NCBI GenBank assembly: GCA_004299305.1
Contig: SCPZ01000109.1
Location: forward strand, 44,918-108,917
Reading direction: 5' to 3'
DNA: 64,000 nt
Source of the DNA: Methylobacter sp.
GTDB taxonomy: Bacteria > Pseudomonadota > Gammaproteobacteria > Methylococcales > Methylomonadaceae
The first letter of the stretch is position 1. The number at the start of each line of letters is the position of its first letter. The notes below the pieces were generated by a model that made no database searches, had not been told where the DNA came from, and saw only the letters and a list, made by a program, of their open reading frames with translations. Shown in pieces: positions 1 through 24,248 of the stretch. A program made the translations under genes and the position numbers.

Positions 1-1
1 T

Positions 2-682
2 CCGCAAGGCTATAAGGAAAATGACGAACCGAAACCCGGCGCTAATTTGGCCAACGGCTATGCGCAGAGTAAATGGGTCGCCGAAAAATTGGTGAGATCG
101 GCCAGGGACAGGGGCTTTCAAGTGACTGTTTATCGACCGGCTACCGTTGCCGGAGACAGCCGTAGCGGTAGTTGGAATACTGAAGACTTTCTGTGCCGGT
201 TGATCAAAGGCTGCATACAGATGGGCTATGCGCCTGTTGAATCGGTCCGCATGGATATGGCGCCCGTCAATTACATGAGCCGGGCTATTGTCTTGCTTTC
301 ATTGCTGCCGAGTTCTATCAGCGCTTGCTTCCATTTAAACCATCCCGCCCCGCCTTATTCCGATCAGCTGATCGATGGCTTTAGCCGGTCGGCTTATAGC
401 CTGGAGCGCATTCCTTATAAAGATTGGGTGAAAAAGGTGCTGGAGACCAATTGTCAGGACTTTGCGTTATTGCCTTTGCTGTCGATGTTTTCGGAGCAGA
501 ACCAGGATGATCAGATGGAGTTATTGGAAGAGGACGCTATCCGCTACGACTGTAGCGAAACGCAAGCGGTCTTGTCGAAGTTAGGCATTGAGTGCGCCTT
601 GTTGGAGGTTGAGTTATTGACACGCTATCAGGCCTATTTTAAGCGTAGCGGCTTTATTCTGGAGCCGGAACATTACCAATAG
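2..682 (+). CDS. C-terminal thioester reductase (R/TD) domain of an NRPS; 5'-partial, gene begins before the window
   Basis: Frame is open from nt 2. NGYAQSKWVAEKLV (YxxxK extended-SDR motif), YRPATVAGDS and DMAPVNY are typical of NRPS terminal reductases. An MbtH gene lies in the same cluster. Confidence 0.85.
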   Translation, partial: PQGYKENDEPKPGANLANGYAQSKWVAEKLVRSARDRGFQVTVYRPATVAGDSRSGSWNTEDFLCRLIKGCIQMGYAPVESVRMDMAPVNYMSRAIVLLSLLPSSISACFHLNHPAPPYSDQLIDGFSRSAYSLERIPYKDWVKKVLETNCQDFALLPLLSMFSEQNQDDQMELLEEDAIRYDCSETQAVLSKLGIECALLEVELLTRYQAYFKRSGFILEPEHYQ

Positions 683-846
683 AAATTATTTTAAACAAAA
701 TGATTTTTGCAGGTGGGGTGGATTTTAAGTTTGGTCGTCTACCTAAGGTAAATGTATTGATCGTACCTATAACAATACCTGCAAATATTGGGTTCTGTTG
801 TTAAAGAACCGGCTACGCGCAGGAAACTACTAAGGAAAATTCCAGA

Positions 847-3387: not shown

Positions 3388-4572
3388 ATGGATCTAAGTC
3401 TAAAAAATCGCCGTAAAATCTGGCTCAAAGTGCATTTATATCTTGGCTTGTTTGCCGGAGCGATATTTGTATTGATTGGACTCACCGGCAGCTTGTTGGT
3501 TTTTGAAGACGCGATAGATGTCTGGTCAAACTCTAAACTGATGGTTGCGCCTGCGCCTGGCGGCAATAAAAGATTTCTGCCGCTGGATGAAATTGTTGCG
3601 TCGGGCATGAAAGCGCTGCCGAACAAGGCCAAGGCGCTTGATTTAGGCTTTCCCAGAGATTCGGAGCGGACTTTTGATTTGTGGTTTGAGCAGCCTTCAC
3701 CGAATGCGGATTATTTCGAAAGACACCAAATATTTATTAATCCTTATACGGCTGAAATTACCGGACAGCGGCTTTTAATCGATTTTCAACGTCCTTGGCG
3801 CGACCCCTTTATGGATTTTATTTTGCGCCTGCACTACAGCCTGGCTTTAGGATCGATAGGGATGAATATCGTAGGTTGGGTCGGTTTAGCATTATTTTTT
3901 ACGGTATTAACAGGGGTGATTTTATGGTGGCCTCGTTCAGGAAAGATCAGCAAGGCATTAACGATTAAACGCAATGCCAGTTCGGAACGGCTCAACTTCG
4001 ATTTACATAAAACATTCGGTTTTTATAGCGCAATTATTCTTGTTTTTTTGATTGCGTCAGGGGTATATCTGGTTTTTCCGAAATACGCGCGTGGCTTGGT
4101 CGGTATTTTTTCGCCTGTATCCCGCCCTTGGCCTGATTATCAAAGTGTCGTTCCAGTGGGTGATAAAACACCGCTAAGCCTAGTTGAAATTAAGCGTATT
4201 ACCGATGCGCGTTTTCCCGATGGCGAATATCGACGAATCGTTTTTCCGCAGAATGAGCGAGGAGTTTATGTTGTAAGTAAGCGGGCAATCGATGAGGTTA
4301 ATCAAAAAAAGGCTTATCGACGCCTTTGGATTGATCAATATAGCGGAAATATTCTTCATGTCCGTGAACATAGTACGCGTACAACCGGAGATATTATTGA
4401 GGAATGGCTTTTCCCGTTACACACAGGCGAGGCTTTCGGTATGACCGGACAGATAATAATTTTAAGTTTTGGGCTGACGCCATTGATACTTTATGTAACC
4501 GGGGTTATCCGGTGGTTACAGAAGAATAGAGCCGTTAATAGAAAGCAGGGTAAGTGCGAAGCAGGCGGTTGA
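3388..4572 (+). CDS. PepSY-associated TM-helix protein (FpvG/FoxB-like inner-membrane ferri-siderophore reductase)
   Basis: WLKVHLYLGL, LRLHYSLA, FDLHKTFGF and FPLHTGE (four TM His), two PepSY-like periplasmic loops, directly after the TBDR. ATG 3388 preferred over the ORF-track start 3334. Confidence 0.88.
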   Translation: MDLSLKNRRKIWLKVHLYLGLFAGAIFVLIGLTGSLLVFEDAIDVWSNSKLMVAPAPGGNKRFLPLDEIVASGMKALPNKAKALDLGFPRDSERTFDLWFEQPSPNADYFERHQIFINPYTAEITGQRLLIDFQRPWRDPFMDFILRLHYSLALGSIGMNIVGWVGLALFFTVLTGVILWWPRSGKISKALTIKRNASSERLNFDLHKTFGFYSAIILVFLIASGVYLVFPKYARGLVGIFSPVSRPWPDYQSVVPVGDKTPLSLVEIKRITDARFPDGEYRRIVFPQNERGVYVVSKRAIDEVNQKKAYRRLWIDQYSGNILHVREHSTRTTGDIIEEWLFPLHTGEAFGMTGQIIILSFGLTPLILYVTGVIRWLQKNRAVNRKQGKCEAGG

Positions 4573-4616
4573 AAGCATCTATATATAAAATAACCGGTTG
4601 TTCCGCTATCGATTCC

Positions 4617-4635
4617 GAAAATATTAATTATCAAT
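4617..4635 (+). promoter_or_regulatory. Possible Fur box in front of the tailoring genes
   Basis: GAAAATATTAATTATCAAT matches 13 of 18 informative positions of AATGATAATnATTATCATT and sits 2 nt upstream of ATG 4638. The region is AT-rich, so a chance match is possible. Confidence 0.35.
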
Positions 4636-4637
4636 CT

Positions 4638-5849
4638 ATGGAAAAAATAATGAATAAAACATCCCATGCGCCTGTGTTTATTTTATCGTGTGAACGATCA
4701 GGTTCTACGATGCTTAGATATATTATCGATACCCATTCTAAAGTAGCCTGCCCCAGTCATTTATATATGGGTAGTTTATGCGATAGCCTGAATCGTGCGG
4801 TAATGGGAACTATTGCACAGAATCAGGTTGAGCTGGATGAAGTAGCTAAGAAACAGTTTGCAGTAAGCGAAACAAGAAAAATTATTGATAATATAATGAA
4901 TAATTATATTGAGATAAAAAACAAACAAGTATGGTGCGAAAAAACGCCAATGAATTTGGAATATCTGTCTATATTGGATACCCATTTTCCTGATGCCAAA
5001 TATATTTGTCTGTATCGGAATTGCATGGATGTGGTTCACTCCAGTATTAACTTGAGTAAATACCGATTCCTTACCGAGCATATACCTTATGTACATAGAA
5101 ATCCTGAAAGCATTATTGCGGCGATGTTGGAGAATTGGTTGGAAAAAACCGATAGATTGCTGGATTTTGAATCGACTCATCAGGAACGTTGTTTTCGGGT
5201 GAAATATGAATCGATAGCCATGCAGCCTGAAGAAACGCTCGCCCCCTTATTCCGGTTTTTGGGGCTTGAATGGGAAAAAGACTTGATGGAACGTGTATTT
5301 GAGGTCAGCCATGATAAGGGAGAAGGCGACGGTAGAGCCGCATTATCCAGTAGGATTCGGCAAGACTCAGTCGGAAAAGGCATTGAAGTGCCACGGGCCG
5401 GAATCCCAAAGAAGTTTATAACAGAAATTGACAGCCTGCTTTGCAAGCTGGGTTATCCATGTCTGGATGATTATTATTCCAATAATTTTATTCGAAATGA
5501 AACAAATAAGGATGACCTGTTTAATGTATCGGATGTATTCGAAAACCGTTTTATGAATGCGATTAAAAAAAACCGATCTCGTTATCCTGCACTCAAGGGG
5601 ATATGGAAGATTATTGTCAAAGGTGATGAAGACGGGGTTTGGTTAATCGATTTATCCAATGAAGACGGCTTAATTAAAGAAGGCGATTTTAGAGCGGATT
5701 CCACACTTCGTTTATCTGCAGCTCTGCTGGCCGATATGGTAAATGGAACAAGAGATGCGATAGAGGCTTTTTCTCATGGAGAGATTGAAATGGATGGGGT
5801 TGATAATGAAGTATCGTTAATGAATTTAGGGCGATTGCTTTTTTCTTGA
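4638..5849 (+). CDS. Sulfotransferase fused to a C-terminal SCP2 (sterol/lipid carrier)-like domain
   Basis: 5'-PSB motif SCERSGSTMLRY, EKTP, and 3'-PB YRNCMDVVHS. C-terminal ~100 aa (GVWLIDLSN...ADSTLRLS...DMVNGTRDAIEAFSHGEIEMDG) follows the SCP2 pattern. Confidence 0.85.
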   Translation: MEKIMNKTSHAPVFILSCERSGSTMLRYIIDTHSKVACPSHLYMGSLCDSLNRAVMGTIAQNQVELDEVAKKQFAVSETRKIIDNIMNNYIEIKNKQVWCEKTPMNLEYLSILDTHFPDAKYICLYRNCMDVVHSSINLSKYRFLTEHIPYVHRNPESIIAAMLENWLEKTDRLLDFESTHQERCFRVKYESIAMQPEETLAPLFRFLGLEWEKDLMERVFEVSHDKGEGDGRAALSSRIRQDSVGKGIEVPRAGIPKKFITEIDSLLCKLGYPCLDDYYSNNFIRNETNKDDLFNVSDVFENRFMNAIKKNRSRYPALKGIWKIIVKGDEDGVWLIDLSNEDGLIKEGDFRADSTLRLSAALLADMVNGTRDAIEAFSHGEIEMDGVDNEVSLMNLGRLLFS

Positions 5850-5880
5850 ATAATGCTTTTTAATCGGCAAGGTTAATAAT

Positions 5881-7248
5881 ATGGCAAACATTGTTTTTTG
5901 TTTTCCTCCAATAGTGAGCACTATTAATTCAAGCTTACGATTGGCTAGAGAGTTAAAGTTGCGTGGTCATCAAATTACTTATTTAGGCATTGCCGATTGT
6001 AAACCCGTGATATGCGCCAATGGTTTTGAATTTGTGTCTATTTATGAAGAATGGTTTCCAAAAGGATGCTTTGGGAGTGCTTATATGAAATCACAACCTT
6101 CAACTGTGGATGATTATTCTGAAGACAGAAATAATTCGCTTAGGTTTAATAATTTTTTGGATTATTTAATTGCTGGCGGTGATGACGAATTAAATAGTGT
6201 AACTCGAGAATTAAATCCGGATTTGATTATTGTCTCAACCTCTTTATCTGATTCTGTTATTTGGGCTTTATTTTTCCATAAATTAAGATTAAAAGTTATA
6301 TATGTTTTTGATGTGTTGGGCGGATGTAATAATACAGTACCACCAATACATACAGAACTTATTTCAGATGGTTCGCTATGGTCTTCAGTAAAAACAATTT
6401 TGGCATGGCATATTCATAAAATAAAAAAAATTCGCCATGAAAGACATTTGGTTAGTAATGGGCTTGATTTAATATCATCAAAGAAGTTAAAAATGCTTTC
6501 CGAATATTGCGGCTATTCGATCAAAGACATCGATTTTTGGACGGATATGCCGGGTTTTCAATTGAAATTACCTGAATTGGTTCTTTTTCCAAAACGCTTT
6601 GATTTTCCAGGAGTAAAAAAGACAGGGCGATATTATGCCGAGGCTTCAATTGATTTAGATCGAGAGCAAGCTTCTTTTCCTTGGGAGAAAGTAATTGAAT
6701 CGCAACCTATCGTGTATGCGGCACTAGGCACCCTTCCGTTATTGGCTAAATCCGATTATGAAAATTTCTTTCGCATAGTGATAGACGCATCACTCAAGTG
6801 GCCTGCATGGAATTGGGTGCTCTCGATTGGTAATAATTTGACGGTGGATGATTTTGAGTCTGTTCCTGCTAATGTGATTATCGTCAATCGTGCTCCACAG
6901 CTGGAGTTGTTAAAAAAAGCATCATTAATGATTACTCACGGAGGGCCTAATTCCGTTAAGGAATGCATATTTTTTGGCGTTCCAATGATAGTTTTTCCGT
7001 TATGGTTTGATCAGCCCGGCAATGTGGCAAGAGTGACTTATCATGGCTTAGGTCTGAAAGGCGATTTTAAGACAATTACCGCCAAAGCATTACAGGATCT
7101 TATAGAAGAAGTGACTGTTAATCCTGAATTCAGGGAACGTACAAAAGCCATGCAAAAATATTTTATCGAAACTGAACAAGCTAAACCCAGCCTACAGTTA
7201 ATTGAAAGATTTATAAGTCAACCCAATATTCCGCCTTTTTTGAATTAA
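5881..7248 (+). CDS. Family-1 (GT-B) glycosyltransferase, MGT/UGT-like, copy 1
   Basis: ELKLRGHQITY N-terminus, YAALGT, and the PSPG-like box RAPQLELLKKASLMITHGGPNSVKECIFFGVPMIVFPLWFDQ. Confidence 0.92.
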   Translation: MANIVFCFPPIVSTINSSLRLARELKLRGHQITYLGIADCKPVICANGFEFVSIYEEWFPKGCFGSAYMKSQPSTVDDYSEDRNNSLRFNNFLDYLIAGGDDELNSVTRELNPDLIIVSTSLSDSVIWALFFHKLRLKVIYVFDVLGGCNNTVPPIHTELISDGSLWSSVKTILAWHIHKIKKIRHERHLVSNGLDLISSKKLKMLSEYCGYSIKDIDFWTDMPGFQLKLPELVLFPKRFDFPGVKKTGRYYAEASIDLDREQASFPWEKVIESQPIVYAALGTLPLLAKSDYENFFRIVIDASLKWPAWNWVLSIGNNLTVDDFESVPANVIIVNRAPQLELLKKASLMITHGGPNSVKECIFFGVPMIVFPLWFDQPGNVARVTYHGLGLKGDFKTITAKALQDLIEEVTVNPEFRERTKAMQKYFIETEQAKPSLQLIERFISQPNIPPFLN

Positions 7249-7369
7249 TTGAGTAAAGAGTAGCTCTGTTTTATTTTCTATATATCGATTTTATTATGGG
7301 CTTCATGCTTATGATAATTTTGTAAATACGTTATTTAATTAATGTTGTTTTAATTTTCAAGGGAAATCT

Positions 7370-9370
7370 ATGCTGGTTTTAGGCTTAAATGGTGGTGGCG
7401 ATTCGGTATTTGATGCGTATTTCGGGCTATCTGAACATGCCTATCATGATACTGCGGCAGTATTGATGCAAGATGGTGTTGTTATTGCCGGAATCGAAGA
7501 AGAACGATTAATTCGTATTAAACACGCCAATAAAATATGGGTATTTGCAGTACAGTTTTGTTTGGAGAAAGCAAATAAAAAACTTGAAGATATAGATTAT
7601 ATTGCTGTCTACTCCAATGAAGATGCTTTAAATAAAGTATTAAAACAGCAGCAGCTAGGCAATCCCCTGTTCGCTGAAATTGGAGATGCGCATAAGTTTT
7701 TTAACTATTTGTTTCAGCGGGAATTTAATTATTGCTTAAAACATAACCAGCTGGTATTTGTTGACCACCATACTACTCATGCGGCAACGGCTTATTACAT
7801 GTCGGGTTTTAAGGATAGTTTGGTGTTGACCATAGACGGTCTCGGCGACGAAGTAGCGACCAAGGTGATTGATGTTCGCAACAAGCATTTTGACTGTTTA
7901 TTGAATAAACCGGCTGTTGATTCGTTAGGGCTTTTATATTGGGAAGTGATACGTTTTCTCGGCTATAGTCATTTCGATGAATATAAGGTAATGGGTTTGT
8001 CGCCTTACGGTTGTCGTGAAGCTTATAAAGAGCAATTTCAACGATTGTATACCTTATTGCCGGACGGCGATTATTCGTTACACCGGGATCGTGTAATTGA
8101 CTTATTTAATATACTGACTCCTCGGAAAAAGGATGCGCCGTTTACCCAAGTCCACATGGATATTGCGGCGGCATTGCAAGAAGCGCTAGAGACTATTGTT
8201 TTCCATATTCTGCGCCATTTTCAGCAAGCGACCGGTCACGCTCGTCTGGTAATCAGCGGGGGAGTGGGGCAAAACAGCAGCATGAATGGCAAGATTCTCT
8301 GTTCCGGTTTATTCGAGGATGTTTTTCTGCCGTCTTTTGCCGGTGATTCGGGCTGTGCTTATGGCGCAGCCGCTTATGTTTCTCACCAGATGCAGCCGAC
8401 GTTGTCTCTTGCGCGCGTTCCTCACGCTTATTGGGGAACGCCGATTCATGACGATGAAGTCGGCAGCGTTTTAGAGGCTTGGCGCGCATTTTTACATATC
8501 GAAAAAATGGATAACCGCTCGGAGCAAGTGGCCGACCTGATTATCGACGGCGCAGCGATCGGATGGGTGCAAGGTTGCTCCGAGTTCGGCCCTAGGGCTT
8601 TGGGTAATCGCAGTATCCTGGCCGATCCGCGTGTTGCCTCGCATAAGGAGACGATCAATGCGATGATTAAAATGCGCGAAGGTTACCGGCCGTTTGCGCC
8701 GTCGATATTGGAAGAGCGGGTGCGGGAGTTCTTCGAGGTGCCGGGAGATCATGCCGATTTCCCTTTCATGTCGTTCGTACTGAATGTTAAACCGGAACGG
8801 CGCGCACAATTGCCCGCCATCACCCACGTAGACGGCAGCGCCAGGCTGCAAACCGTAAGTAGGACTACTAATCTGCGCTATTGGGAGTTAATCAACGCTT
8901 TCGGCAGCAAAACCGGCATCCCGATTTTGCTGAATACCTCGTTCAATAACAATGCCGAGCCTATAGTCGACAGCATAGACGATGCCGTGGTGTGTTATTT
9001 GACCTCCGGGTTGGATTACCTGGTCGTGGGCGATTATTTGGCCAGTAAAACAGCCTGGCAGCCTGAGGACTTGGCCGACTTAATCGTCAGCTTGCCGAAA
9101 GCCGCAGTATTGCTAAGAGAAGATCGCTATGTCAGCCATAGTGAACGCGCTTTCAGTTATGCGTTGGTTTGGAATTACGATTCCGCACGACGCCATGCGT
9201 TGTCGGAAGTAGGCTACAAGATATTGCAGGCGGCCGACGGAGAACAGTCTGTAGGGCGGCTTATGCTTACTTTAGGTTTTTCAAAGGAACAGCAAGCACA
9301 GGTTCTGGAGGAATTGCCGGGATTGTGGTCGGATCGATTGCTGGTGTTGCGGCCAAAGCTGAGTTTGTAG
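7370..9370 (+). CDS. Carbamoyltransferase (NodU/CmcH/TobZ family) with ~110-aa C-terminal extension
   Basis: HDTAAVL, EEERLIRIKH, DHHTTHAATAYY, DGLGD, EYKVMGLSPYG, SGGVGQN, EFGPRALGNRSILADP, REGYRPFAPS, LNTSFN. Confidence 0.95.
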   Translation: MLVLGLNGGGDSVFDAYFGLSEHAYHDTAAVLMQDGVVIAGIEEERLIRIKHANKIWVFAVQFCLEKANKKLEDIDYIAVYSNEDALNKVLKQQQLGNPLFAEIGDAHKFFNYLFQREFNYCLKHNQLVFVDHHTTHAATAYYMSGFKDSLVLTIDGLGDEVATKVIDVRNKHFDCLLNKPAVDSLGLLYWEVIRFLGYSHFDEYKVMGLSPYGCREAYKEQFQRLYTLLPDGDYSLHRDRVIDLFNILTPRKKDAPFTQVHMDIAAALQEALETIVFHILRHFQQATGHARLVISGGVGQNSSMNGKILCSGLFEDVFLPSFAGDSGCAYGAAAYVSHQMQPTLSLARVPHAYWGTPIHDDEVGSVLEAWRAFLHIEKMDNRSEQVADLIIDGAAIGWVQGCSEFGPRALGNRSILADPRVASHKETINAMIKMREGYRPFAPSILEERVREFFEVPGDHADFPFMSFVLNVKPERRAQLPAITHVDGSARLQTVSRTTNLRYWELINAFGSKTGIPILLNTSFNNNAEPIVDSIDDAVVCYLTSGLDYLVVGDYLASKTAWQPEDLADLIVSLPKAAVLLREDRYVSHSERAFSYALVWNYDSARRHALSEVGYKILQAADGEQSVGRLMLTLGFSKEQQAQVLEELPGLWSDRLLVLRPKLSL

Positions 9371-9566
9371 AGTTGTCACAAAAGAGGCTGTTTAATTTTG
9401 ATCAATAGTCATCGGTCGCCGAATAATTTTCGAAAAAAATGAGTGATGTGAAATGTTGAAAATAGCCGATGCCGGATGGCGCACCGGTAGGCTCGGCAAT
9501 GCTTTTGCACCCGCTATAGAGATACCGTTTATTGTTGGAAATGCAGCTCGCCTCACAGCGTCACTA

Positions 9567-10577
9567 ATGGCTTGGCTGCTTTCTTGCTGGTTTCTGGGTT
9601 TTTGTGCTTCTGCACAGGCGACGCCCATACCGGTTCGCACCCAAACGCTGGCGGACTTGGCGATTTATCCCGAGTCAGCAGCTCCGGCTGTCGTCGTGAG
9701 CCTGAATGATGCGCCCATCGCCGCCCAAGTAGATGCCTTAGTGGTCGATGTGCCGGTTCGGGTAGGCGATACGGTCAAAGCCGGGGCAACGCTGGTTAAG
9801 CTGGCCTGTCGTGATTTTGAACTGGAACAGTCGAGGTTGAAAGCGGAACGACAAGCCATTCAGGCGCGCCTGGAACTGGCGCAGTGGCAGCTCAAACAGG
9901 CGGAAACTCTGGCCGCACAGCAAACTCTGCCGGAAGAACAGGTACAGGAGAAACGCTCGCAACTGGCGGTGTTACGCGGCGACCTTGCCGCTCACGGCGC
10001 ACGTATCGAAATCACCGACCGTCAGATAGACCATTGCACCGTAAAAGCGCCTTTCCCAGGCGTGGTAACGGCGCGTTTAATCGCGGTAGGGCAATTTGCA
10101 TCGCAAGGCACAGCCTTGGTGCGGCTGTTGGATATGACTCGGCCCGAAGTGTCCGCACAGGTATCCAGCCGCGAAACCGATGCTTTGCGTCAGGCAAAAA
10201 CATTGGTCTTTGAACACGACGGCAAGCACTATCCGTTGAATTTACGGGCGGTACTGCCGACCATCCATACCGAAACCGGAACACAGGAGGTACGCTTGGA
10301 TTTCACTGAACTACACAGCGATCCCGGCGCCGCCGGTCGATTGATTTGGCAGGAGGGTGTGCAGCATGTTCCAGCCGAATACCTGGTGCAGCGTGGCGGC
10401 CAGCTCGGCGTATTTATTATGTCCGACGGCAAAGCGCATTTTCATGCGCTTCCCGGCAGCCAAAGCGGGCGGCCTGCCACTATCTCGCTTCCGTCTGAAA
10501 CTCAGTTAATCGTCACCGGTCAGTTCGGCTTGAGCGAAGAATCGGATGTAAAGGCTGAGCCGTTGAAAGGACGCTAA
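9567..10577 (+). CDS. RND efflux periplasmic adaptor (MFP)
   Basis: Lipoyl/barrel halves (VRVGDTVKAG; VKAPFPGVV) around a coiled coil; first gene of an MFP-RND-TolC trio. ATG 9567 preferred over 9453. Confidence 0.9.
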   Translation: MAWLLSCWFLGFCASAQATPIPVRTQTLADLAIYPESAAPAVVVSLNDAPIAAQVDALVVDVPVRVGDTVKAGATLVKLACRDFELEQSRLKAERQAIQARLELAQWQLKQAETLAAQQTLPEEQVQEKRSQLAVLRGDLAAHGARIEITDRQIDHCTVKAPFPGVVTARLIAVGQFASQGTALVRLLDMTRPEVSAQVSSRETDALRQAKTLVFEHDGKHYPLNLRAVLPTIHTETGTQEVRLDFTELHSDPGAAGRLIWQEGVQHVPAEYLVQRGGQLGVFIMSDGKAHFHALPGSQSGRPATISLPSETQLIVTGQFGLSEESDVKAEPLKGR

Positions 10578-10581
10578 CCGG

Positions 10582-13500
10582 ATGCTTAAGCGTTTTTATC
10601 AAAATCACGTACTGGCTAACCTGGCCTATGCATTGGTGTTGTTGTTAGGTTTGTTCGCCTACGGGAGTTTGGCGCGCGAAGAGTTTCCCGATGTAAACCA
10701 AAATTTTATGAGCGTGTGGATAGGCGTGCCGGGGCTTTCAGCAGAAGACATTGAGCAACGCCTAACCCTGCCTTTCGAGCAACTGTTGCACGCTCGATTG
10801 GCCGATGTGCGAACCATCTCAAGCACTACCGGCGCCGGGTTTTCCTCCACTTTACTTCGCTTTAACTCGCTGGACCGGGCGACTTTTGAAAAACGCGGCG
10901 CAGAACTGCGCCGCGAAGTTCAGGCGGCTTATGCGACGATCTTTCCCAAAGAAACCACGATCTATTGGGTTTGGGGCGACACCGGTTCGGTCACTCGTAG
11001 CGTCGGCACCGTGCTCGTGCAGGGCGGCGGCGATCCCGAGCGATTCAAAGCCACTATACGAGAAATCAAACGCGATTTGGAGAGGATTTCCGGCATCGAG
11101 AAACTTGATTATTACGGCTATTCGGAATCGGAAATTCACATCGCATTTCATCCCGAACAGCTTGAAGGTTTGGGGCTGCGTCCGCTGGATATTGCCGATA
11201 CGGTAAGCATTTATTTGCGTGACGAAGCGGCAGGGCCGGTAGCGTTGGGCGACAAGGAGTGGCTGGTGCGGGTGGTGGGTAGCGGCAATCTTCCGTCACG
11301 TCTGGCCGAGCTGTCCATAGTCGGCGCTCATGGCGTGGTCAAGCTGGGCGACATCGCCGAGATTGTGCGGAGCGACAACAGTTTCAATCCTATGCCCCGT
11401 AGCGATGGCGTACCGGCCGGGTTATTTTCGCTGTATAAGAAGAATGCTGCCGATGCCTTCGAGGTGATTAAACAAGTGCAGCAATTTATCGATGCGCGCA
11501 ATGCCGAAAGCGGGCGTACCGGGGTAAAACTGCTGCTCGCCGAGGATGAGACGGTTCGTACCCGAAGCGCTATCTCTATCATGGAGCACAAGGCTTGGTG
11601 GGGCTTGCTGCTGGTGCTGATCATGACCTGGGTATTTCTGGGTTCACGGCTTGCTGCGTTGTGTACTCTCGCAGTTCCCTTTGCTTTGGGCGGAACCTTC
11701 CTGATGTTGCAGGCGGCGGGCATGACGTTGAACACCAGCGTGTTGCTTGGCGTGATGATCGCCCTCGGGATGCTGGTTGATTATGCGGTGGTCGTGGTCG
11801 AAGCGATTGCCTACCGGATCCGGCAAGGCATGGCGGCATTGGATGCTGCGCTTGATGCGTTAGGCGAAGTCGGAACGCCTGTGATCAGTTCGTTTCTTAC
11901 TACGATTGCGGCGTTTTTGCCGTTGGCGCTGCTGCCTGGATTTCTAGGCGGTATCATGCGCGTAGTGCCGATTGCAGTGACCGCTGCATTATTGGCGGCA
12001 CTTATAGAAGCATTGTGGATGTTGCCCGCCCACATCGCGGCATTGGGTCCGGCGCTGGCGAGTCCTTCGCGATTCCAGGCAAAGCGCACCCAAGCCAGCT
12101 ATTGGTTGCGAGTCCGCTACACTCGCCTGTTGTTGGGTTGCCTGCGCCATCCCGGACGGGCATTTTTTCCAGCCTTGCTTGCCTTTGGCATAGCCGGAGC
12201 GGCGCTGATTTGGGGTTGGGTTGCGGTCGATTTTTTCCCCAAGGAACCTACCCGTTCGTTTACGGTACAGGTCCAATTTCCGCCCGGTACTAAAGCCGAC
12301 AGCACCTATCCGGTATTCGAGGCTATGGAAGCGCGTGTCCGTGCAGCACTGACTATCGATGAACTACAGACTATCGTGACGCTTCCGCCGGAGGAACTGC
12401 GGGTATATCTCGCCCCGAATGGCCGGAAGTTGCCTGACATATTGGCGCTGATTGAGCCTTCACTACAGCAAGTTATAGGCCCTACTGAAGTATCAATCCT
12501 CGGGCAATCCAGCGGCGGCCCGCAAGGCGCGCCGATCAAGGCGAAATTGACCGGTTCGGATTTTCTTGCCTTGAGGTTGGCTGCTGACGATTTGCAAGCC
12601 GCGATAAGCAAGCATCCGGCCTTTAGCAATATGCACAGCGATTATCAGGGCGGCGCGCCGCAGCTGGATTTGCGCCTCAACGGCGTCGCCATCCAGCGTA
12701 GCGGCGTTGCCCCGGAAACAGTCTTACGCACCGTTAAACTGCTGGTGCGCGGCGAAGTCGTGGCCGGCTACCGAGAAGGCGCCGACACGATTGGGGTTAG
12801 GGTGATGTCCAAAACAGCGCCGTATCAAGACCTCGATGCCTTATTGCGGCAAACGGTCGCCCGTCCCGGCGGCGGCGCGGTGCCGCTGGCCGATTTGGTC
12901 GAAGCGGAACGCCGCGAAGGTCCGCAGATGATCCATCATTACAATTATCGGCGCGTGATCACCCTGGAAGCCAACCTGGATGCAAAACAGATGAATGTGA
13001 GCGATGCCAATGACTGGATCGCCAAACAGTGGCAGACCTTCAGTACAGCACACCCCGAAGTGAAACTGGATTTGACCGGCGAGATCGAAGACATCAAGGA
13101 GAGCCTGGGTGGCCTTCGCCATCTGGCGTTTCTGGGCTTGGGCCTGATCTTTTTGATTCTGGGCGCGCAATACCGCAGCTATTTGCAGCCTGCGCTTATC
13201 TTGCTCAAAGTGCCGATGGGATTTGCTGGGGTTATTTTGGGGCTGCTCATCTCGCGGGAGCCGGTTAGTCTTTATACGCTGTACGGCGGCGTAGCGCTGG
13301 CCGGGATCACCGTCAACTCGGCCATTTTGTTGTTTTCCGCCGCCAATGACCGGGTCGAAGCGGGCATGAACGTCGTTCATGCGGCCTTCTATGCCGCACG
13401 GCGACGGCTGATTCCTATCCTCATTACCTCCTTTGCCACGATGGCCGGGCTGCTGCCTCTGGCTGTAGCCGGGGACGAAGCCTCTTCGCTTTGGCGGCCT

Positions 13501-13620
13501 GTGGCTACGGCTATTGTTTGGGGCTTGGGTTTTTCAACCTTGCTGACCCTGTTCGTGGTGCCGCTCATTTATCGCTTGGCGATAGGTTGGACACAAAACA
13601 GGGTAAGAAAATCGACATGA
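10582..13620 (+). CDS. RND efflux permease (AcrB/CusA superfamily) with atypical proton-relay residues
   Basis: 1012 aa, two repeats of TM plus large periplasmic domain; GMLVDYAVVVVE (TM4), GITVNSAILL (TM10), RRRLIPILITS (TM11), AIVWGLGFSTLLTLFVVP. Confidence 0.92.
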   Translation: MLKRFYQNHVLANLAYALVLLLGLFAYGSLAREEFPDVNQNFMSVWIGVPGLSAEDIEQRLTLPFEQLLHARLADVRTISSTTGAGFSSTLLRFNSLDRATFEKRGAELRREVQAAYATIFPKETTIYWVWGDTGSVTRSVGTVLVQGGGDPERFKATIREIKRDLERISGIEKLDYYGYSESEIHIAFHPEQLEGLGLRPLDIADTVSIYLRDEAAGPVALGDKEWLVRVVGSGNLPSRLAELSIVGAHGVVKLGDIAEIVRSDNSFNPMPRSDGVPAGLFSLYKKNAADAFEVIKQVQQFIDARNAESGRTGVKLLLAEDETVRTRSAISIMEHKAWWGLLLVLIMTWVFLGSRLAALCTLAVPFALGGTFLMLQAAGMTLNTSVLLGVMIALGMLVDYAVVVVEAIAYRIRQGMAALDAALDALGEVGTPVISSFLTTIAAFLPLALLPGFLGGIMRVVPIAVTAALLAALIEALWMLPAHIAALGPALASPSRFQAKRTQASYWLRVRYTRLLLGCLRHPGRAFFPALLAFGIAGAALIWGWVAVDFFPKEPTRSFTVQVQFPPGTKADSTYPVFEAMEARVRAALTIDELQTIVTLPPEELRVYLAPNGRKLPDILALIEPSLQQVIGPTEVSILGQSSGGPQGAPIKAKLTGSDFLALRLAADDLQAAISKHPAFSNMHSDYQGGAPQLDLRLNGVAIQRSGVAPETVLRTVKLLVRGEVVAGYREGADTIGVRVMSKTAPYQDLDALLRQTVARPGGGAVPLADLVEAERREGPQMIHHYNYRRVITLEANLDAKQMNVSDANDWIAKQWQTFSTAHPEVKLDLTGEIEDIKESLGGLRHLAFLGLGLIFLILGAQYRSYLQPALILLKVPMGFAGVILGLLISREPVSLYTLYGGVALAGITVNSAILLFSAANDRVEAGMNVVHAAFYAARRRLIPILITSFATMAGLLPLAVAGDEASSLWRPVATAIVWGLGFSTLLTLFVVPLIYRLAIGWTQNRVRKST

Positions 13621-14951
13621 AACGATACCGTCAAGCCACCCTGAGTTTGGTTGTTGTTTTATTTGGCGCACCGCTTCAAGCAAACGACCTTCTTTCCGTC
13701 TATCAAGACGCTGCACGGGAAGATCCGCAACTGGAACGAGCGCGGGAATCCCTTGCCGCAATTCAGGAGACCCAGTCCCAGGCTAGTGCGGCGCTGTTTT
13801 TGCCCGAAGCGACCGCCACTGCCAACATCAATCAGGATTCCCAGAGCGTTCAGTTTAGTGGAGCGAGTGCAACAGGCGCCAGTGGACGCAGTCATTTTAA
13901 AAGTGGCGGTTATATGCTGAACCTGACACAACCGTTGCTGCATTATGACCGGATTATTGCTTGGCGGCAGGCGGACAGTCGCATTGCCCAGGCTGAAGCC
14001 GAATATGCCGCAGCAGAAATTGCACTGATGTTGCGGGTTGCCGAACGCTATTTCGACTTGCTTGCCGCCAAAGAAAACCTCCAGTTTGCCAAGGCGCAGC
14101 AGGAAACGCTGGGCCGCGGACTGAATGAGACCCGGCAGCGTCAAGCCGTGGGATTCCTAGCGATGACTGACGTGCAGGAAGCCCAGGCAGGATACGATCG
14201 GGCCTTGGCGGATACCGTTGAGGCCGAACATTTGCTGCGCGATGCGAAAGAAAGTTTGCAGGAAGTCACGGGCGCGGACTATGACCGGCTTGCCGCTTTG
14301 CGGGATGAAATACCGTTGGTCAAACCCGATCCAGCCATTGAGGAAGATTGGGTCGGTCAGGCATTGCGACAGAATATAGGACTGCTGGTCAGCGAACAGG
14401 CTGCGCAAATAGCAAAAGCGGCAATCGACATCCAGCAAGCCGGGCATTTGCCTACCTTGGATGCCGTCGGCAGTCATAGTTTTTCGACTTCAGGCGGGCG
14501 TTTCGGTACTGCGGATATTGAGGACAGTGTTGTCGGCTTGTCTCTGAACGTGCCGCTTTATCAGGGCGGACGCGTTAATTCAAGAACGCGGGAAGCTGAG
14601 CACCGCTATCGTGCTGCGCTTGCTACCTTAAAACAGGAACAGCGGGCGGTGCATCGGGCCGCCAGCAACGCCTTTCTGGGCGTGGTGGCGGGTATCAGCC
14701 GGGTCAGTGCCTTGCAACAGACCTTGCGTTCAAGCGAGACCGGGGTCAATGCGACTGAAGCCGGTTTTAGAGCCGGTCGCCGCACCGCGCTGGATGTTAT
14801 CGTCGCCGAGCGCGAACGGCTGCGCGCGCAAAAAGACTATGCCCGCGCCCGTTACGATTATTTGCTTAACACGTTGCGCTTGAAACAGGCGGTAGGGACA
14901 TTATCGCCCGCTGATCTTGCGCAGGTTAATGAGTGGCTTGAAGCTACTTAG
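13617..14951 (+). CDS. TolC-family outer-membrane efflux protein
   Basis: MKRYR signal peptide starts at an ATGA overlap with the RND stop; DLLSVYQDA, LPTLD, GRRTALDV, ARYDYLLNTLRLKQAVGTL. Confidence 0.93.
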   Translation: MKRYRQATLSLVVVLFGAPLQANDLLSVYQDAAREDPQLERARESLAAIQETQSQASAALFLPEATATANINQDSQSVQFSGASATGASGRSHFKSGGYMLNLTQPLLHYDRIIAWRQADSRIAQAEAEYAAAEIALMLRVAERYFDLLAAKENLQFAKAQQETLGRGLNETRQRQAVGFLAMTDVQEAQAGYDRALADTVEAEHLLRDAKESLQEVTGADYDRLAALRDEIPLVKPDPAIEEDWVGQALRQNIGLLVSEQAAQIAKAAIDIQQAGHLPTLDAVGSHSFSTSGGRFGTADIEDSVVGLSLNVPLYQGGRVNSRTREAEHRYRAALATLKQEQRAVHRAASNAFLGVVAGISRVSALQQTLRSSETGVNATEAGFRAGRRTALDVIVAERERLRAQKDYARARYDYLLNTLRLKQAVGTLSPADLAQVNEWLEAT

Positions 14952-15074
14952 GAATGAGGCACGAAATAACTTAGGCAAGTTGCCAATAGTCGGAGTGCAG
15001 GCTTCGCCTGCGTGCGCAAGCAAAGCTTGCACTCCTGCCGCATACAGTTGTCCACTTTATTTCATGCTCGTTCC
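14951..15074. mobile_element. MITE shell type F1 (GGAATG.GCACGAAATAACTT ends), 124 bp
   Basis: TTA duplicated at 14948-50 and 15075-77 around GG...CC. Near-complete reverse-complement copy at 48461-48605. Left end overlaps the tolC stop. Confidence 0.85.
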
Positions 15075-15077
15075 TTA

Positions 15078-15343
15078 GGAATGCGCACGAAATAACTTGA
15101 ACAGATAACATCCCTTGAAGGGATGGTAAGTATTCAGAGCCCTTGGCTTCATGCGGTTGGCTTAGCCATTAAATGGTTCGTTTAGAATTTTATGGCTAAA
15201 ACATCCTATTGAAAAATATATTGTTACCCCAAGACCTTCCAGGTTTTAAAAACCTGGAAGGTCTAAATATACGGTCGGGGTCTGAATAGTTACAAGGGAT
15301 GTTATCTGTAAATTGGCTGTATGAGTTATTTAATTTTCATCCC
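15078..15343. mobile_element. Second F1 MITE in tandem, containing a palindrome interrupted by an F3 MITE
   Basis: Left end GGAATGCGCACGAAATAACTT, degenerate right end AGTTATTTAATTTTCATCCC, TTA on both sides (15075-77, 15344-46). Confidence 0.65.
15126..15293. mobile_element. MITE shell type F3 (IS66-like ends) carrying a 33-bp palindrome
   Basis: Ends GTAAGTATTCAG...CTGAATAGTTAC; perfect 8-bp duplication AAGGGATG (15118-25, 15294-301); internal AGACCTTCCAGGTTTT-A-AAAACCTGGAAGGTCT. Confidence 0.9.
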
Positions 15344-15438
15344 TTAGTATTCAGTCTGTATTCGTAAGCGATTGCGTAATATGCCGGAATTATTATTCTG
15401 GTTGAAATATATATCAATTTCATCTGTAAGGTTTATAT

Positions 15439-16809
15439 ATGGCTAATATTGTTTTTTGCTTTCCTCCCATAACCAGTACTATTAATTCGAGTTTACGATT
15501 GGCTAGGCTGCTAAAAAGCGGGGGGCATAACGTTAGCTATATTGGAATTCTTGATTGTAAGTCCAATGTGCGCGCCAATGGATTTGATTTTTTTTCAGTA
15601 TATGAAAAATGGTTTCCGAAGGGGTGGTTTGATGATTATTTCGTAAAATCACAATCTTCACTTGATAGCGAACATACTATTAAAAGAGATGTTGCTGGTA
15701 ATTTTAATGACTTTTTAAATTACATTATCAATGGCGGGGATAGTGAACTGGCTTTAATATTAAAAGATATAAAACCGGATATTGTTCTTATATCGACATC
15801 GGGTATTGATTCTGTCGTTTGGGCTTTACTGATGCATAAGATGAATTACAAAAGTATTTATGTTTTTGATATTTTGGGAGGTGTGGTAAATCATACCGTC
15901 CCTCCGGTGCATACCGGATTAATTTCAACTGGCAGTTTATGGTCATCGCTAAAGACTTTGTTGGTATGGTGTGTTTTTTATTTTAAAAAAATAAAAATAC
16001 AAAAAATTTTAACGAAAAACGGTTTTGATATTTTTTCGAATAAAAAAATACTCGGACTGGCTGATTATTGTCGATATCCATCCGAAGATATTAGCTTTTT
16101 TAATGATATGTCCGGTCCGCTGTTAAAGTTGCCTGAATTGGTTCTTTTTCCAAAACGCTTTGATTTTCCAGGGGTAAAAAAGACAGGGCGATATTATGCC
16201 GAGGCTTCAATTGATTTAGACCGGGAGCAAGCTTCTTTTCCTTGGGAGAAAGTAATTGAATCGCAACCTATCGTGTATGCGGCATTAGGCACTCTTCCGT
16301 TATTGGCTAAAGCCGATTATGAAAATTTCTTTCGCATAGTGATAGACGCATCACTCAAGTGGCCTGAATGGAATTGGGTGCTCTCGATTGGTAATAATTT
16401 GACGGTGGATGATTTTGAGTCTGTTCCTGCTAATGTGATTATCGTCAATCGTGTCCCACAGCTGGAGTTGTTAAAAAAAGCATCATTAATGATTACTCAC
16501 GGAGGGCCTAATTCCGTTAAGGAATGCATATTTTTTGGCGTCCCAATGATAGTTTTTCCGTTATGGTTTGATCAGCCCGGCAATGTGGCAAGAGTGACTT
16601 ATCATGGCTTAGGTCTGAAAGGCGACTTTAAGACAATTACCGCCAAAGAATTACAGGATCTTATAGAAGAAGTGACTGTTAATCCTGAATTCAGGGAACG
16701 TACAAAAGCCATGCAAAAATATTTTATCGAAACTGAACAAGCCAAACCCAGCCTACAGTTAATTGAAAGATTTATAATGCAAGCTAATATTCCGCCTTTT
16801 TTGGATTAA
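15439..16809 (+). CDS. Family-1 glycosyltransferase, copy 2
   Basis: Same motifs as copy 1; nt 16132-16777 are ~98% identical to 6571-7216, while the 5' half is diverged. Confidence 0.92.
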   Translation: MANIVFCFPPITSTINSSLRLARLLKSGGHNVSYIGILDCKSNVRANGFDFFSVYEKWFPKGWFDDYFVKSQSSLDSEHTIKRDVAGNFNDFLNYIINGGDSELALILKDIKPDIVLISTSGIDSVVWALLMHKMNYKSIYVFDILGGVVNHTVPPVHTGLISTGSLWSSLKTLLVWCVFYFKKIKIQKILTKNGFDIFSNKKILGLADYCRYPSEDISFFNDMSGPLLKLPELVLFPKRFDFPGVKKTGRYYAEASIDLDREQASFPWEKVIESQPIVYAALGTLPLLAKADYENFFRIVIDASLKWPEWNWVLSIGNNLTVDDFESVPANVIIVNRVPQLELLKKASLMITHGGPNSVKECIFFGVPMIVFPLWFDQPGNVARVTYHGLGLKGDFKTITAKELQDLIEEVTVNPEFRERTKAMQKYFIETEQAKPSLQLIERFIMQANIPPFLD

Positions 16810-16873
16810 TTTTGGATTAATTAATGTAGTCAATACAGCTCTTTATGTTATTCAATTAATGTTGAGGGGCGTT

Positions 16874-17038
16874 GTAGATATTCAGCCCCTTAGCGCCATA
16901 CGGTTGGCTTAACCATTAAACGGTTCGTTTAGAATTTTATGGCTAAATCATTCTATTGAAAAATATATTGTTACGCCAAGACCTCCCAGGTTTTAAAAAC
17001 CTGGAAGGTCTAAATACGGTCGGGATCTGAATAGTTAC
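16874..17038. mobile_element. F3 MITE, direct-repeat sister of 15126-15293
   Basis: About 17 differences over ~165 nt by manual alignment; ends GTAGATATTCAG...CTGAATAGTTAC; target duplication not clean. Confidence 0.8.
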
Positions 17039-17488: not shown

Positions 17489-17992
17489 TCACAGGTCCAA
17501 TCGTTGGTTTTTGAAATGCTTACGGCAGTGCAGCAGCGCTTTGGCTATATGTTTTTCAACGGAGCTGTCGGATATGCCGAGTTCCTTGGCGGTTTCGGTA
17601 TAGGTCATGCCGTAAACTCTATTCAGGACAAATATTTCTCGGGTGCGCAACGGCAACTCCTCAAGTATCAGGGTAATGGCGGCTAACCTTTCATTGACGG
17701 ATGCAAGTTTTTCGGCAGAGGGAAATTCGCTTGGCGGGGGGAGGGTTTGTTCTTTGGTTTGCTGGTAATTTTCCGTTACTTTTCGATGCTTGATGTGGTC
17801 GTAAGCGAGGTTTTTAGCAATTCGGAACAGAAAGCCGCGCGGATGATCGATAGTTTGTTTTTGCGCTTCACGGAAAAAAATAATGAAGCTTTCTTGAGCG
17901 ATGTCGGCGGCTATATCAGGGCAGTCGACAATCCGAGTCAAATGAAACTGCAACTCAGACCGGTGATTTAAATAAATGGCTTCTATGTTCAA
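17489..17992 (-). CDS. ECF sigma factor, FecI/PvdS/FpvI (iron-starvation) class
   Basis: AADIAQESF, FLFRIAKNLAYDH, LEELPLRTREIFVLNRVYGMTYTETAKELGIS..VEKHIAKAL. Confidence 0.92.
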   Translation of the reverse strand: MNIEAIYLNHRSELQFHLTRIVDCPDIAADIAQESFIIFFREAQKQTIDHPRGFLFRIAKNLAYDHIKHRKVTENYQQTKEQTLPPPSEFPSAEKLASVNERLAAITLILEELPLRTREIFVLNRVYGMTYTETAKELGISDSSVEKHIAKALLHCRKHFKNQRLDL

Positions 17993-23267: not shown

Positions 23268-24248
23268 ATGAAACAAGAAAACCAGAAGAACAGTTTGGAA
23301 TCCGGACTTGACAACGATATTGACGAGCAAGCGGCGGCTTGGTTTATAAGGCTGCGGGCCGACAATGTCTCCGGCGAGGAAAAGGGGGCATTTCTTCGAT
23401 GGTTGAACCAGGATGACGCGCATAGAGATACCTTTAATGAAATCAGCAAATTGTGGGGCGATGCCGATTTGCTGCAAGCGCTAGTTGAAACCGGACAAAA
23501 ACATCGCATAGCACCCTGTAAAAAAACAACAGCCGTTAATAAATTTAAACTGCCGCTGGCAATGGCGGCTGGTTTGGCTTTAGCTTTGCTGTTTCAGGGC
23601 GAATTGGCGATTTTGATGCAAAGCGATTATTCGACCAGGATAGGCGAACGAAAAACCGTTTATTTCGATGACGGTTCAACGGCGATGCTCAATACCGACA
23701 GTTCCATTGCCGTCAGCATGGATGGCCCTCAACGCAGGGTCGAACTGCTGAAGGGCGAGGCTTACTTCGAGGTTAAACCCGATCCCAATCGGCCGTTTAT
23801 TGTTCAAGCCGGACATTCGGCGACCCGCGTACTGGGCACACGGTTTTTCGTGCATGAAAAGAGCGATAGCGATGAAGTTAAAGTCGTATCAGGCCGCGTT
23901 GAAGTGGGCAATCGGCACAGCTTGGAGCCGCCATTGATTTTGCATGATCGCGAAGCTGTATCGGTCGATGCCGAAGGGCTGGGCGAAACCCGGTTACTGG
24001 ATTCGGCGCTGACCACATCCTGGGTGAACGGTTTTTTGGTGTTTGAGAATGCGTCCCTGGAGAGCGTTATTAGCCAGATCCGCCGCTACAGGCGTGGTAT
24101 GGTGGTCTACAAGGACAATACTTTACGTAAACTCGAAATCAATGGCCGCATCAATTTGCGCGAATCGGACGACATGCTGAAAGTATTGGGCAAAAACCTG
24201 TCGGTAAGAATGACCTATCTGAGCGACTGGTTGGTGATTGTCGGGTGA
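23268..24248 (+). CDS. FecR-family anti-sigma/transmembrane signal transducer
   Basis: EQAAAWFIRL..FLRWL, a TM segment, STRIGERKTVYFDDGS..LNTDS, GEAYFEV, VLGTRF. Confidence 0.93.
   Translation: MKQENQKNSLESGLDNDIDEQAAAWFIRLRADNVSGEEKGAFLRWLNQDDAHRDTFNEISKLWGDADLLQALVETGQKHRIAPCKKTTAVNKFKLPLAMAAGLALALLFQGELAILMQSDYSTRIGERKTVYFDDGSTAMLNTDSSIAVSMDGPQRRVELLKGEAYFEVKPDPNRPFIVQAGHSATRVLGTRFFVHEKSDSDEVKVVSGRVEVGNRHSLEPPLILHDREAVSVDAEGLGETRLLDSALTTSWVNGFLVFENASLESVISQIRRYRRGMVVYKDNTLRKLEINGRINLRESDDMLKVLGKNLSVRMTYLSDWLVIVG

Follow-up and report, generated by a model that had tools for sequence, protein, structure and literature searches.

Two glycosyltransferase genes share one near-identical half

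We analyzed a window of 64,000 nucleotides (nt) from Methylobacter sp. (GenBank assembly GCA_004299305.1, contig SCPZ01000109.1, forward-strand positions 44,918 to 108,917; genome label G000). It carries two paralogous glycosyltransferase genes, named here GT-A and GT-B, whose 3' portions are almost the same while their 5' portions have diverged widely (Table 1; the enzyme fold that shares a name with the second gene is always written as GT-B fold). A genome search found two copies of this sequence only, GT-A and GT-B, and the pair at its 9561-nt spacing was also recovered by a repeat search. At that offset, positions 6571-7216 aligned with 16132-16777 without a gap and with 13 differences in 646 nt (at 6612, 6660, 6663, 6724, 6732, 6751, 6806, 6893, 6894, 6981, 7065, 7088 and 7182), in exact agreement with the original prediction, which had been made from the letters of the window and had counted about 13. 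When identity was scored in ungapped 50-nt bins at the same offset, all bins of 6600-7199 were 96-100% identical while the flanks were at 20-36%, and over 6300-6549 the ungapped identity reached 44-64% at best. A codon alignment showed the N halves to be homologous along their whole length, with one 1-codon indel, at 63% nucleotide and 55% amino acid identity; the C halves were 97% identical at both levels. A maximum chi-square scan detected a single breakpoint at alignment column 696, which corresponds to position ~6570 and codon 229/230 (K-LPELVLFP), with a chi-square of 254 as compared to a maximum of 18.4 in 1000 permutations. Both the scan and the sharp step in the 50-nt bins bore out the abrupt switch at LPELVLFP that had been predicted. 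The 3' edge of the tract was at ~7216, ~30 nt ahead of the stop codon; the final 9-10 codons held paralogue-specific differences, and the DNA past the two stops was unrelated.

Since the genome is a 144-contig draft, and dispersed repeats of the kind found around the region break assemblies elsewhere, we considered whether a collapsed or chimeric repeat had joined the 3' half of GT-A to the 5' half of another gene. However, the copies differed at 18 positions (13 in the tract and 5 at the 3' end), and both ran into unique flanks on one 119-kb contig. The GT-B tract had 5 private substitutions, and its last codons shared states with GT-B orthologues alone. In addition, the gene with a GT-B N half and a GT-A-like C half was found in five other independently assembled GT-B sequences (one NCBI metagenome, several Logan runs). 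These observations make assembly collapse a very unlikely origin of the identical tract.

Synonymous divergence separates recombination from constraint

Between GT-A and GT-B, the synonymous divergence (dS) of the N half was saturated (1.37), and that of the C half was 17-fold lower (0.078). The original prediction held that homologues with the same gradient at synonymous sites would speak for conservation in place of conversion. No such gradient was seen: dS between GT-A and its M. tundripaludum orthologue (G036) was 0.67 in the N half and 0.70 in the C half, and between G036 and G002 it was 0.117 and 0.137, respectively. Since orthologue pairs had no step between the halves, differential conservation is excluded. 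C domains of family GT1 are generally better conserved, and most of the invariant columns of our family alignment were in the C half; it could therefore be argued that the C domain is merely more constrained and that purifying selection after an old duplication, without recombination, left it alike. The size and abruptness of the dS step, the equal dS of both halves in orthologue pairs and the incongruent trees of the two halves (below) already refute this explanation, to which we give practically no credence.

The ratio of nonsynonymous to synonymous divergence (omega) was 0.13-0.29 across comparisons and both open reading frames (ORFs) were intact, indicating purifying selection on GT-A and GT-B; for GT-B orthologues it was 0.20 (N half) and 0.25 (C half). 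Fast adaptive divergence of the GT-B N half after a recent duplication was rejected, since its synonymous sites were saturated and its omega was 0.29. We also rejected a further patch of conversion near the gene start, since the first 100 nt kept paralogue-specific states in both of the lineages compared below.

The two halves have different phylogenies

As had been proposed, separate trees were built for the N and C domains, with homologues taken from large protein collections and from the genomes of relatives. GT-A orthologues of 80-88% identity were present in M. tundripaludum SV96, a Methylobacter metagenome-assembled genome, Ca. Methylomicrobium oryzae and L019, the last of which also carried the cluster around the gene. 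On the other hand, GT-B was not found in 60 relatives nor in any GTDB species representative, and its orthologues, with N halves 90-91% identical, were found solely in metagenome assemblies: P0001/L018 from NCBI, and P0010-P0013 and L020 from Logan. All GT-B orthologues shared the chimeric structure, the 5' boundary (columns 696/699) and the 3' boundary. A search with the GT-B-type N half gave 8 matches in 5.8 billion clustered proteins and a best identity of 49% in 1.84 billion representatives. Neither these protein sets nor the 60 relatives and the GTDB species genomes held a GT-B-type N half joined to another C half.

In the tree of N halves, the long branch that bears GT-B with its orthologues fell outside the GT-A clade (ultrafast bootstrap, UFboot, 99) as well as outside the group of GT-A and G006_2 (UFboot 83), with P0007, P0006 and P0033 as neighbors. 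In the C-half tree, GT-B was placed inside the youngest GT-A subclade together with the GT-A genes of this genome and of L019 (G000_A and L019_A; UFboot 96). The approximately unbiased (AU) test rejected the grouping of GT-B with G000_A and L019_A for the N-half protein (p=0.0005), and for C-half nucleotides of close relatives it rejected a GT-A clade that excludes GT-B (p=0.0067); with the C-half protein under strict GT-A monophyly the result was marginal (p=0.062). The two topologies thus disagree and, together with the dS step and the breakpoint, they lend good support to the predicted recent gene conversion or domain-level recombination. Because the GT-B C half is nested in the youngest GT-A subclade, GT-A was the donor, and from its position in the tree the GT-B C half derives from GT-A, at a time after the lineage of G000 and the L sequences parted from M. 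tundripaludum. The N halves would be either anciently diverged paralogues or the result of GT-B having acquired its N half elsewhere.

The shared tract appears to have been homogenized repeatedly

We compared informative sites in a quartet made up of G000_A, G000_B (the GT-B of this genome), L018_B and L019_A. Grouping by orthology was supported by 163 sites of the N half, grouping by lineage by 1 and the third grouping by 1. The corresponding C-half counts were 5, 14 and 1, and 4 of the 5 orthology sites were at the tract edges; in the tract interior 14 of 16 sites went by lineage, with one each for orthology and the third way (P=1e-5). The C-half data rejected the orthology topology (AU p=0.040) and grouped L018_B with L019_A at 95% bootstrap. 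When states were polarized by G036 and G002, the paralogues of the L lineage shared 9 derived states and those of G000 shared 2. Five flanking genes served as the baseline between the lineages, with a proportion of synonymous differences (pS) of 0.231 and a dS of 0.18-0.46. The pS between the C halves of the paralogues was 0.074 in G000 and 0.077 in L, well below this baseline (P=3e-7). The pS of the GT-B N halves between lineages was 0.188, which fits the baseline and indicates that GT-B existed before the lineages split. These results support a chimeric structure that predates the split from the second lineage, with C halves that were probably homogenized again after it; they favor repeated homogenization (concerted evolution) rather than a single swap. 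Homogenization is no general property of glycosyltransferase pairs in this cluster type, since the C halves of the tandem glycosyltransferases at the GT-A position of G006 were just 50% identical.

Several points weigh against this reading. The GT-B of L018 and the GT-A of L019 come from different assemblies, apparently of one project, and their membership in a single lineage is assumed. Conversion after the split in G000 rests on the 2 polarized sites and the low paralogue dS. Furthermore, the pS of orthologous C halves, 0.114-0.117, was also under the baseline (P=2e-4). Within-genome conversion does not predict this, which hints at exchange between lineages; the pS among the four C halves, from two paralogues in each of two lineages, was 0.07-0.12 as compared to 0.231 in the flanks, and this pattern suggests that the donor-domain segment may also have moved between strains. 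These same features can be accommodated by a single ancient swap, or by a foreign N half that became fused to a duplicate of the GT-A C half, with no conversion later on; the likeness of C halves within a lineage would then be sampling noise or would reflect the transfer of segments between strains. The identical tract boundaries in both lineages, the low number of polarized sites in G000 and the closeness of the four C halves, which fits some exchange, are all in keeping with such an event. It does not account well for the rejected orthology topology, for 14 interior sites by lineage against 1 by orthology, or for a paralogue pS that is lower than the orthologue pS and far under the baseline; and because the GT-B N halves are near baseline, GT-B predates the split while its C halves coalesce later. 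We give a single event a small though real chance, and put the probability of recombination with GT-A as donor plus later homogenization at about 0.8.

The N half of GT-A is a recombination mosaic in its own right relative to the L019 orthologue. When compared with L019:3384-4073, its identity varied between 72 and 96% in 90-nt windows, and its pS of 0.338 relative to the L019 orthologue was above the flank baseline (P=0.003). Of the two genes, G000_A was more aberrant than L019_A relative to M. tundripaludum. Since this half is both patchy and over-diverged, the acceptor half has also received foreign sequence, and the glycosyltransferase genes carry at least three histories inside 1.4 kb.

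Enzyme family and position of the junction in the protein

GT-A and GT-B both matched the Pfam families UDPGT (57-59 bits; cut-off 19.5), EryCIII-like_C (53-57 bits; cut-off 31.7) and Glyco_tran_28_C (45 bits). They scored 136.4 and 132.0 bits, respectively, against the NCBIfam macrolide glycosyltransferase model MGT (TIGR01426); as these scores are under its cut-off of 260, the two are GT1 relatives of the macrolide group and non-members by that criterion. The AlphaFold2 model of GT-A (predicted local distance difference test score, pLDDT, 73; predicted template modeling score, pTM, 0.73) had the GT-B fold with two Rossmann-like domains, and its top Foldseek matches in the PDB were UGT109A1, YjiC, OleI, Kcn28 and CalG1-4 (probability 1.00, TM-score 0.6-0.78). 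By sequence, the best solved relatives were UGT109A1/YjiC, Kcn28, YojK, OleI/OleD and CalG2, with the C half only aligned. YjiC/UGT109A1 and OleI/OleD, of the MGT group within GT1, were the closest of these (phmmer E-value 7.5e-26 for the C half, Foldseek E-value ~4e-21); unlike theirs, the N domain of GT-A and GT-B is ~55 residues longer and barely alignable in sequence.

In a weak phmmer alignment (4 bits), the Gly-His of the YjiC motif PAYGHVNP paired with S13-T14 of PIVSTINS; the usual general base of GT1 enzymes is an N-terminal His after strand 1, with a partner Asp. This Ser-Thr position is encoded at 5917-5925 in GT-A (residues 13-15, PIVSTINS) and at 15475-15483 in GT-B (PITSTINS). 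No invariant His was found in residues 1-28 of the family alignment, in which D114 was invariant. The usual GT1 general base may be missing or relocated.

In the GT-A model, the part up to residue 143 contained five N-domain strands. Long helices (166-217) came next, then a loop of low confidence (218-227) and strands at 232-235 and 250-253; the strand at 277-281 (IVYAALGT) opens the C domain. Counted on the seven-strand GT1 topology, the strands at 232-235 and 250-253 are probably the last two of the N domain, which would place the junction ~25-45 residues ahead of the true linker and first C-domain strand. The claim that the switch lies close to the interdomain linker holds only approximately: the breakpoint at residues 229/230 follows the loop, but two more strands, probably of the N domain, come after it. 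The breakpoint is in KLPELVL, which is invariant or nearly so and is better conserved than any other motif of the family. A crossover between diverged paralogues is expected in a conserved stretch, and the conservation of KLPELVL alone could explain where it was resolved. On the unconverted side are all those N-domain segments that vary and are rich in insertions (residues 60-110 and 145-227), so the proposed division into a shared donor side and differing acceptor sides is roughly right.

Gene cluster and surroundings of GT-B

Judged from the genes around them, GT-A and GT-B are predicted tailoring glycosyltransferases of a Methylobacter nonribosomal peptide synthetase (NRPS) cluster of siderophore-like (metallophore) type (Table 1). 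Upstream on the contig is an NRPS gene that has an extra AMP-binding (acyl-ligase-like) domain first and then condensation-adenylation-thiolation (C-A-T) modules. The remaining two NRPS genes add two modules, judged by length and by homology to neighbors, for a total line-up of an acyl-ligase start module, five C-A-T modules and a terminal reductase. The NRPS genes are followed by those for an STN-TonB receptor, a PepSY_TM protein, a sulfotransferase-SCP2 protein, GT-A, a NodU/CmcH-type carbamoyltransferase, an efflux system of membrane fusion protein (MFP), resistance-nodulation-division (RND) pump and outer-membrane factor (OMF), and GT-B. Beyond GT-B are genes for an extracytoplasmic function (ECF) sigma factor, a cyclic-peptide-type ATP-binding cassette (ABC) exporter, a penicillin-amidase/PvdQ-like N-terminal nucleophile (Ntn) acylase and FecR. 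GT-A starts 31 nt downstream of the sulfotransferase gene and is for this reason probably co-transcribed with it.

Table 1. Features of the window around GT-A and GT-B (window positions)
Feature	Position	Strand	Description	Basis
NRPS terminal reductase domain	47-682		tail of last NRPS gene	Pfam
STN-domain TonB receptor	847-3303			Pfam
Sulfotransferase	4554-5849	+	C-terminal SCP2 domain; predicted tailoring enzyme	Pfam Sulfotransfer_3, Sulfotransfer_1, SCP2
GT-A	5881-7248	+	455-aa GT1 / GT-B-fold glycosyltransferase	Pfam, AlphaFold2 model and Foldseek, orthologues
GT-A N half	5881-6570	+	acceptor-side domain, diverged from GT-B	63% nt, 55% aa, dS 1.37
Homogenized tract, copy 1 (GT-A)	6571-7216	+	last N-domain strands, linker and donor-binding C domain to codon ~446
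Carbamoyltransferase	7370-9370	+	NodU/CmcH-type O-carbamoyltransferase; predicted tailoring enzyme	Pfam Carbam_trans_N, Carbam_trans_C
RND efflux genes	9453-14951	+	MFP, RND pump and OMF, between the GT genes	Pfam HlyD_D23, ACR_tran, OEP
MITE-like repeat, first copy	15126-15293	+	dispersed, ~170 nt, with 33-nt palindrome; upstream of GT-B	~90% identical to 16874-17038
GT-B	15439-16809	+	456-aa paralogue of GT-A; stands alone, with the OMF gene on one side and the ECF sigma factor gene on the other	Pfam
GT-B N half	15439-16131	+	old or foreign lineage	N-half tree position, AU test
Homogenized tract, copy 2 (GT-B)	16132-16777	+	groups with G000_A and L019_A	UFboot 96
MITE-like repeat, second copy	16874-17038	+	downstream of GT-B, same orientation
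ECF sigma factor	17489-17992	-		Pfam
FecR	23268-24248			Pfam

The ECF sigma factor, FecR and the STN-TonB receptor point to regulation and uptake of the siderophore type. The cluster was compared with pyoverdine-type systems, which are marked by a PvdQ-type acylase, a PvdE-type ABC exporter, an acyl-starter NRPS and ECF sigma, FecR and STN-TonB receptor genes. The ABC exporter exceeded the cut-off of the model TIGR01194 (477 bits; cut-off 286); the acylase matched Pfam Penicil_amidase and reached only 63 bits against NCBIfam PvdQ (cut-off 950); and release is by a reductase domain instead of a thioesterase. The carbamoyltransferase scored 157 bits with NCBIfam NodU, under the cut-off of that model. 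The carbamoyltransferase and the sulfotransferase may modify the sugar or, alternatively, the reduced C-terminus. Genes for sugar biosynthesis were not seen in the cluster. Nothing relevant came up when the literature was searched for a siderophore that this cluster makes in Methylobacter or M. tundripaludum, and the literature searched gave no description of a glycosylated, carbamoylated and sulfated NRPS metallophore class for methanotrophs.

The SCP2-sulfotransferase gene occurs in G000 and L019 and was not found at the matching position in G036, G002 and G006. In G036, a 404-aa ORF past the carbamoyltransferase gene was just 40% identical to the sulfotransferase. G006 had another second glycosyltransferase (L016:13541-14884), 43% identical to GT-A and in tandem upstream of the GT-A orthologue, and at the GT-B position it had a 435-aa ORF (L017:4446-5753) with a weak Fic/DOC match; the set of tailoring genes in this cluster thus varies among Methylobacter species. 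The GC content was 30-42% in the sulfotransferase gene, GT-A, the 5' third of the carbamoyltransferase gene and GT-B (4000-8100 and 15200-17000), and 52-63% in the efflux genes. Within the carbamoyltransferase gene it climbed gradually from ~7800 to 8400.

GT-B is bracketed by two copies of a repeat that resembles a miniature inverted-repeat transposable element (MITE) and contains a 33-nt palindrome, GACCTTCCAGGTTTTAAAAACCTGGAAGGTC. G000 held 31 full-length and 25 partial copies of the element, 7 of them within 400 nt of a contig end, and L019 had one copy (1894-2060) ahead of the sulfotransferase gene. We considered the 130-170-nt direct repeats as an insertion signature of GT-B and rejected them, since the element is dispersed genome-wide and since the flanks of the GT-B orthologues in L018 and L020 lacked it. 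Further short dispersed repeats occupied 14951-15125, between the OMF gene and the first MITE-like copy, and the first ~127 nt past the OMF stop recurred at 81-96% identity on contigs C88, C52, C69 and C135 and elsewhere. The intergenic region between the OMF gene and the repeat is a nest of small mobile elements.

Between lineages, ~90 nt upstream of GT-B including the ribosome-binding region were kept, while the wider context differed. The conserved unit is limited to the stretch between about -90 and the stop codon, and in this respect GT-B behaves as a movable cassette. In L020, the neighbor of GT-B (1-1590, minus strand) had an HNHEDH (metallo-beta-lactamase-like) motif and no homologue in G000. 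In L019 (12901-14751, minus strand), what comes after the OMF gene, where G000 has GT-B, is a 1994-aa gene on the minus strand, with its 3' end toward the OMF gene.

Given this setting, GT-B could be a decaying or silent spare copy caught between two MITEs, in which conversion was neutral and left the product unaffected. Its position apart from the tailoring operon, its bracketing by repeats and its rarity among relatives and GTDB species representatives fit this possibility, and no strong sigma-70-type promoter stands out upstream of it. A decaying copy, however, would hardly be expected to have an intact ORF in six independent sequences, the low omega between GT-B orthologues in both halves, and an upstream region with its ribosome-binding site conserved between lineages. 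We consider a spare copy to be quite unlikely.

Proposed history and function

Sequence comparison demonstrates the mosaic and its breakpoint, the A-to-B direction, the timing relative to the lineage split and the purifying selection on both genes. In the history that we propose, the 3' 646 nt of GT-B would have been overwritten by GT-A sequence through non-reciprocal homologous recombination between direct copies 9.56 kb apart. The overwritten stretch would begin with the final strands of the N domain, continue through the linker and take in almost all of the domain that binds the nucleoside diphosphate (NDP) sugar, with the crossover resolved in the KLPELVL motif and ~30 nt short of the stop codon. 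A first event would have produced the long identical tract, and later conversions inside it, in G000 and independently in a related lineage, would have kept the C halves alike.

In enzymes of the GT-B fold, the main nucleotide-sugar site is in the C domain and the acceptor site in the N domain (PMC1885805, PMC8795383). By analogy, GT-A and GT-B might use one nucleotide sugar on differing acceptors, a proposal to which we give even odds. The peptide would then be glycosylated at two acceptor positions, or the sugar added first would be extended by GT-B; in either case the product would be doubly glycosylated. Because the cluster encodes no sugar-biosynthesis genes, the shared sugar is probably a common UDP-sugar. 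Two properties of the enzymes tell against this functional part: residues of the GT1 N domain help in donor recognition too, and the Thr at the usual position of the catalytic His, as placed by the weak alignment, may mean that catalysis is atypical.

A more far-reaching possibility is that selection has kept the donor half identical, so that the pair would form a system of constant donor and variable acceptor domains, a DNA-level counterpart of UGT1, in which a cassette moves and an allele spreads; taken together, we hold this to be doubtful. If it were true, the movable, MITE-bracketed GT-B cassette would attach a second copy of the sugar to the siderophore, at a new position. Its gain or loss, or recombination between GT-A and GT-B, including deletion between the 646-bp repeats, would create glycoform diversity in the population, which could matter for siderophore piracy among methanotrophs. 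The low divergence of the C halves between lineages would then reflect one donor-domain allele that spread across strains. Independently of this possibility, homologous recombination in general could act on two direct repeats of 646 bp at a distance of 9.5 kb and so delete the carbamoyltransferase and efflux genes.

The pair is a natural demonstration that a GT-B-fold glycosyltransferase tolerates recombination roughly at its domain boundary, and that, within one cluster, a single donor-binding domain can be reused in evolution alongside two acceptor-binding domains that differ greatly. It supports the rationale of chimeric glycosyltransferase engineering, with KLPELVLFP as a naturally validated junction for this enzyme group. 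The analysis also draws attention to a Methylobacter/Methylomicrobium NRPS metallophore that is predicted to be glycosylated, carbamoylated and sulfated.

Comparison with known systems

The process itself is ordinary gene conversion between paralogues with concerted evolution, as found in textbooks. The closest natural analogue known to us is UrdGT1b/UrdGT1c of the urdamycin cluster, which Hoffmeister et al. (2001-2002) reportedly described as a GT1 pair that is nearly identical over most of its length, with its functional difference within part of the N-terminal domain. As in our pair, two GT1 tailoring enzymes share a cluster and the functional difference would be N-terminal. However, the variable part of UrdGT1b/1c is reportedly a short patch in proteins that are otherwise ~91% identical, whereas in GT-A/GT-B all 230 aa of the N half belong to an old paralogue (55% amino acid identity) and the C half alone has been homogenized; the evidence of repeated conversion in two lineages is likewise specific to GT-A/GT-B.

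Concerted evolution inside biosynthetic clusters is familiar from the KS and AT domains of modular polyketide synthases (PKS) and the C and A domains of NRPS, in which the parts that set specificity stay different. The likeness is that one part of paralogous units is homogenized while its specificity-conferring neighbors differ. Those cases mainly concern assembly-line modules, whereas GT-A and GT-B are stand-alone tailoring enzymes with 9.5 kb of unrelated genes between them. In engineered GT-B-fold chimeras (glycopeptide Gtf hybrids, KanF/GtfE), the N and C domains of different GT1 enzymes have been joined near the linker in the laboratory so as to recombine acceptor and donor specificity; the natural junction of GT-A/GT-B, on the other hand, is predicted to be ~25-45 residues upstream of the first C-domain strand, in a conserved motif.

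In its logic, the closest system is the vertebrate UGT1 locus, in which many acceptor-binding N domains are combined with one donor-binding C domain in an enzyme of the GT-B fold (PMC1885805). Little gene conversion was found among the variable exons of UGT1 (PMC1885805). The variable first exons of UGT1 are alternatively spliced to a single physical copy of the constant exons for the C domain, whereas in GT-A/GT-B there are two copies of that domain, which conversion appears to have kept alike.

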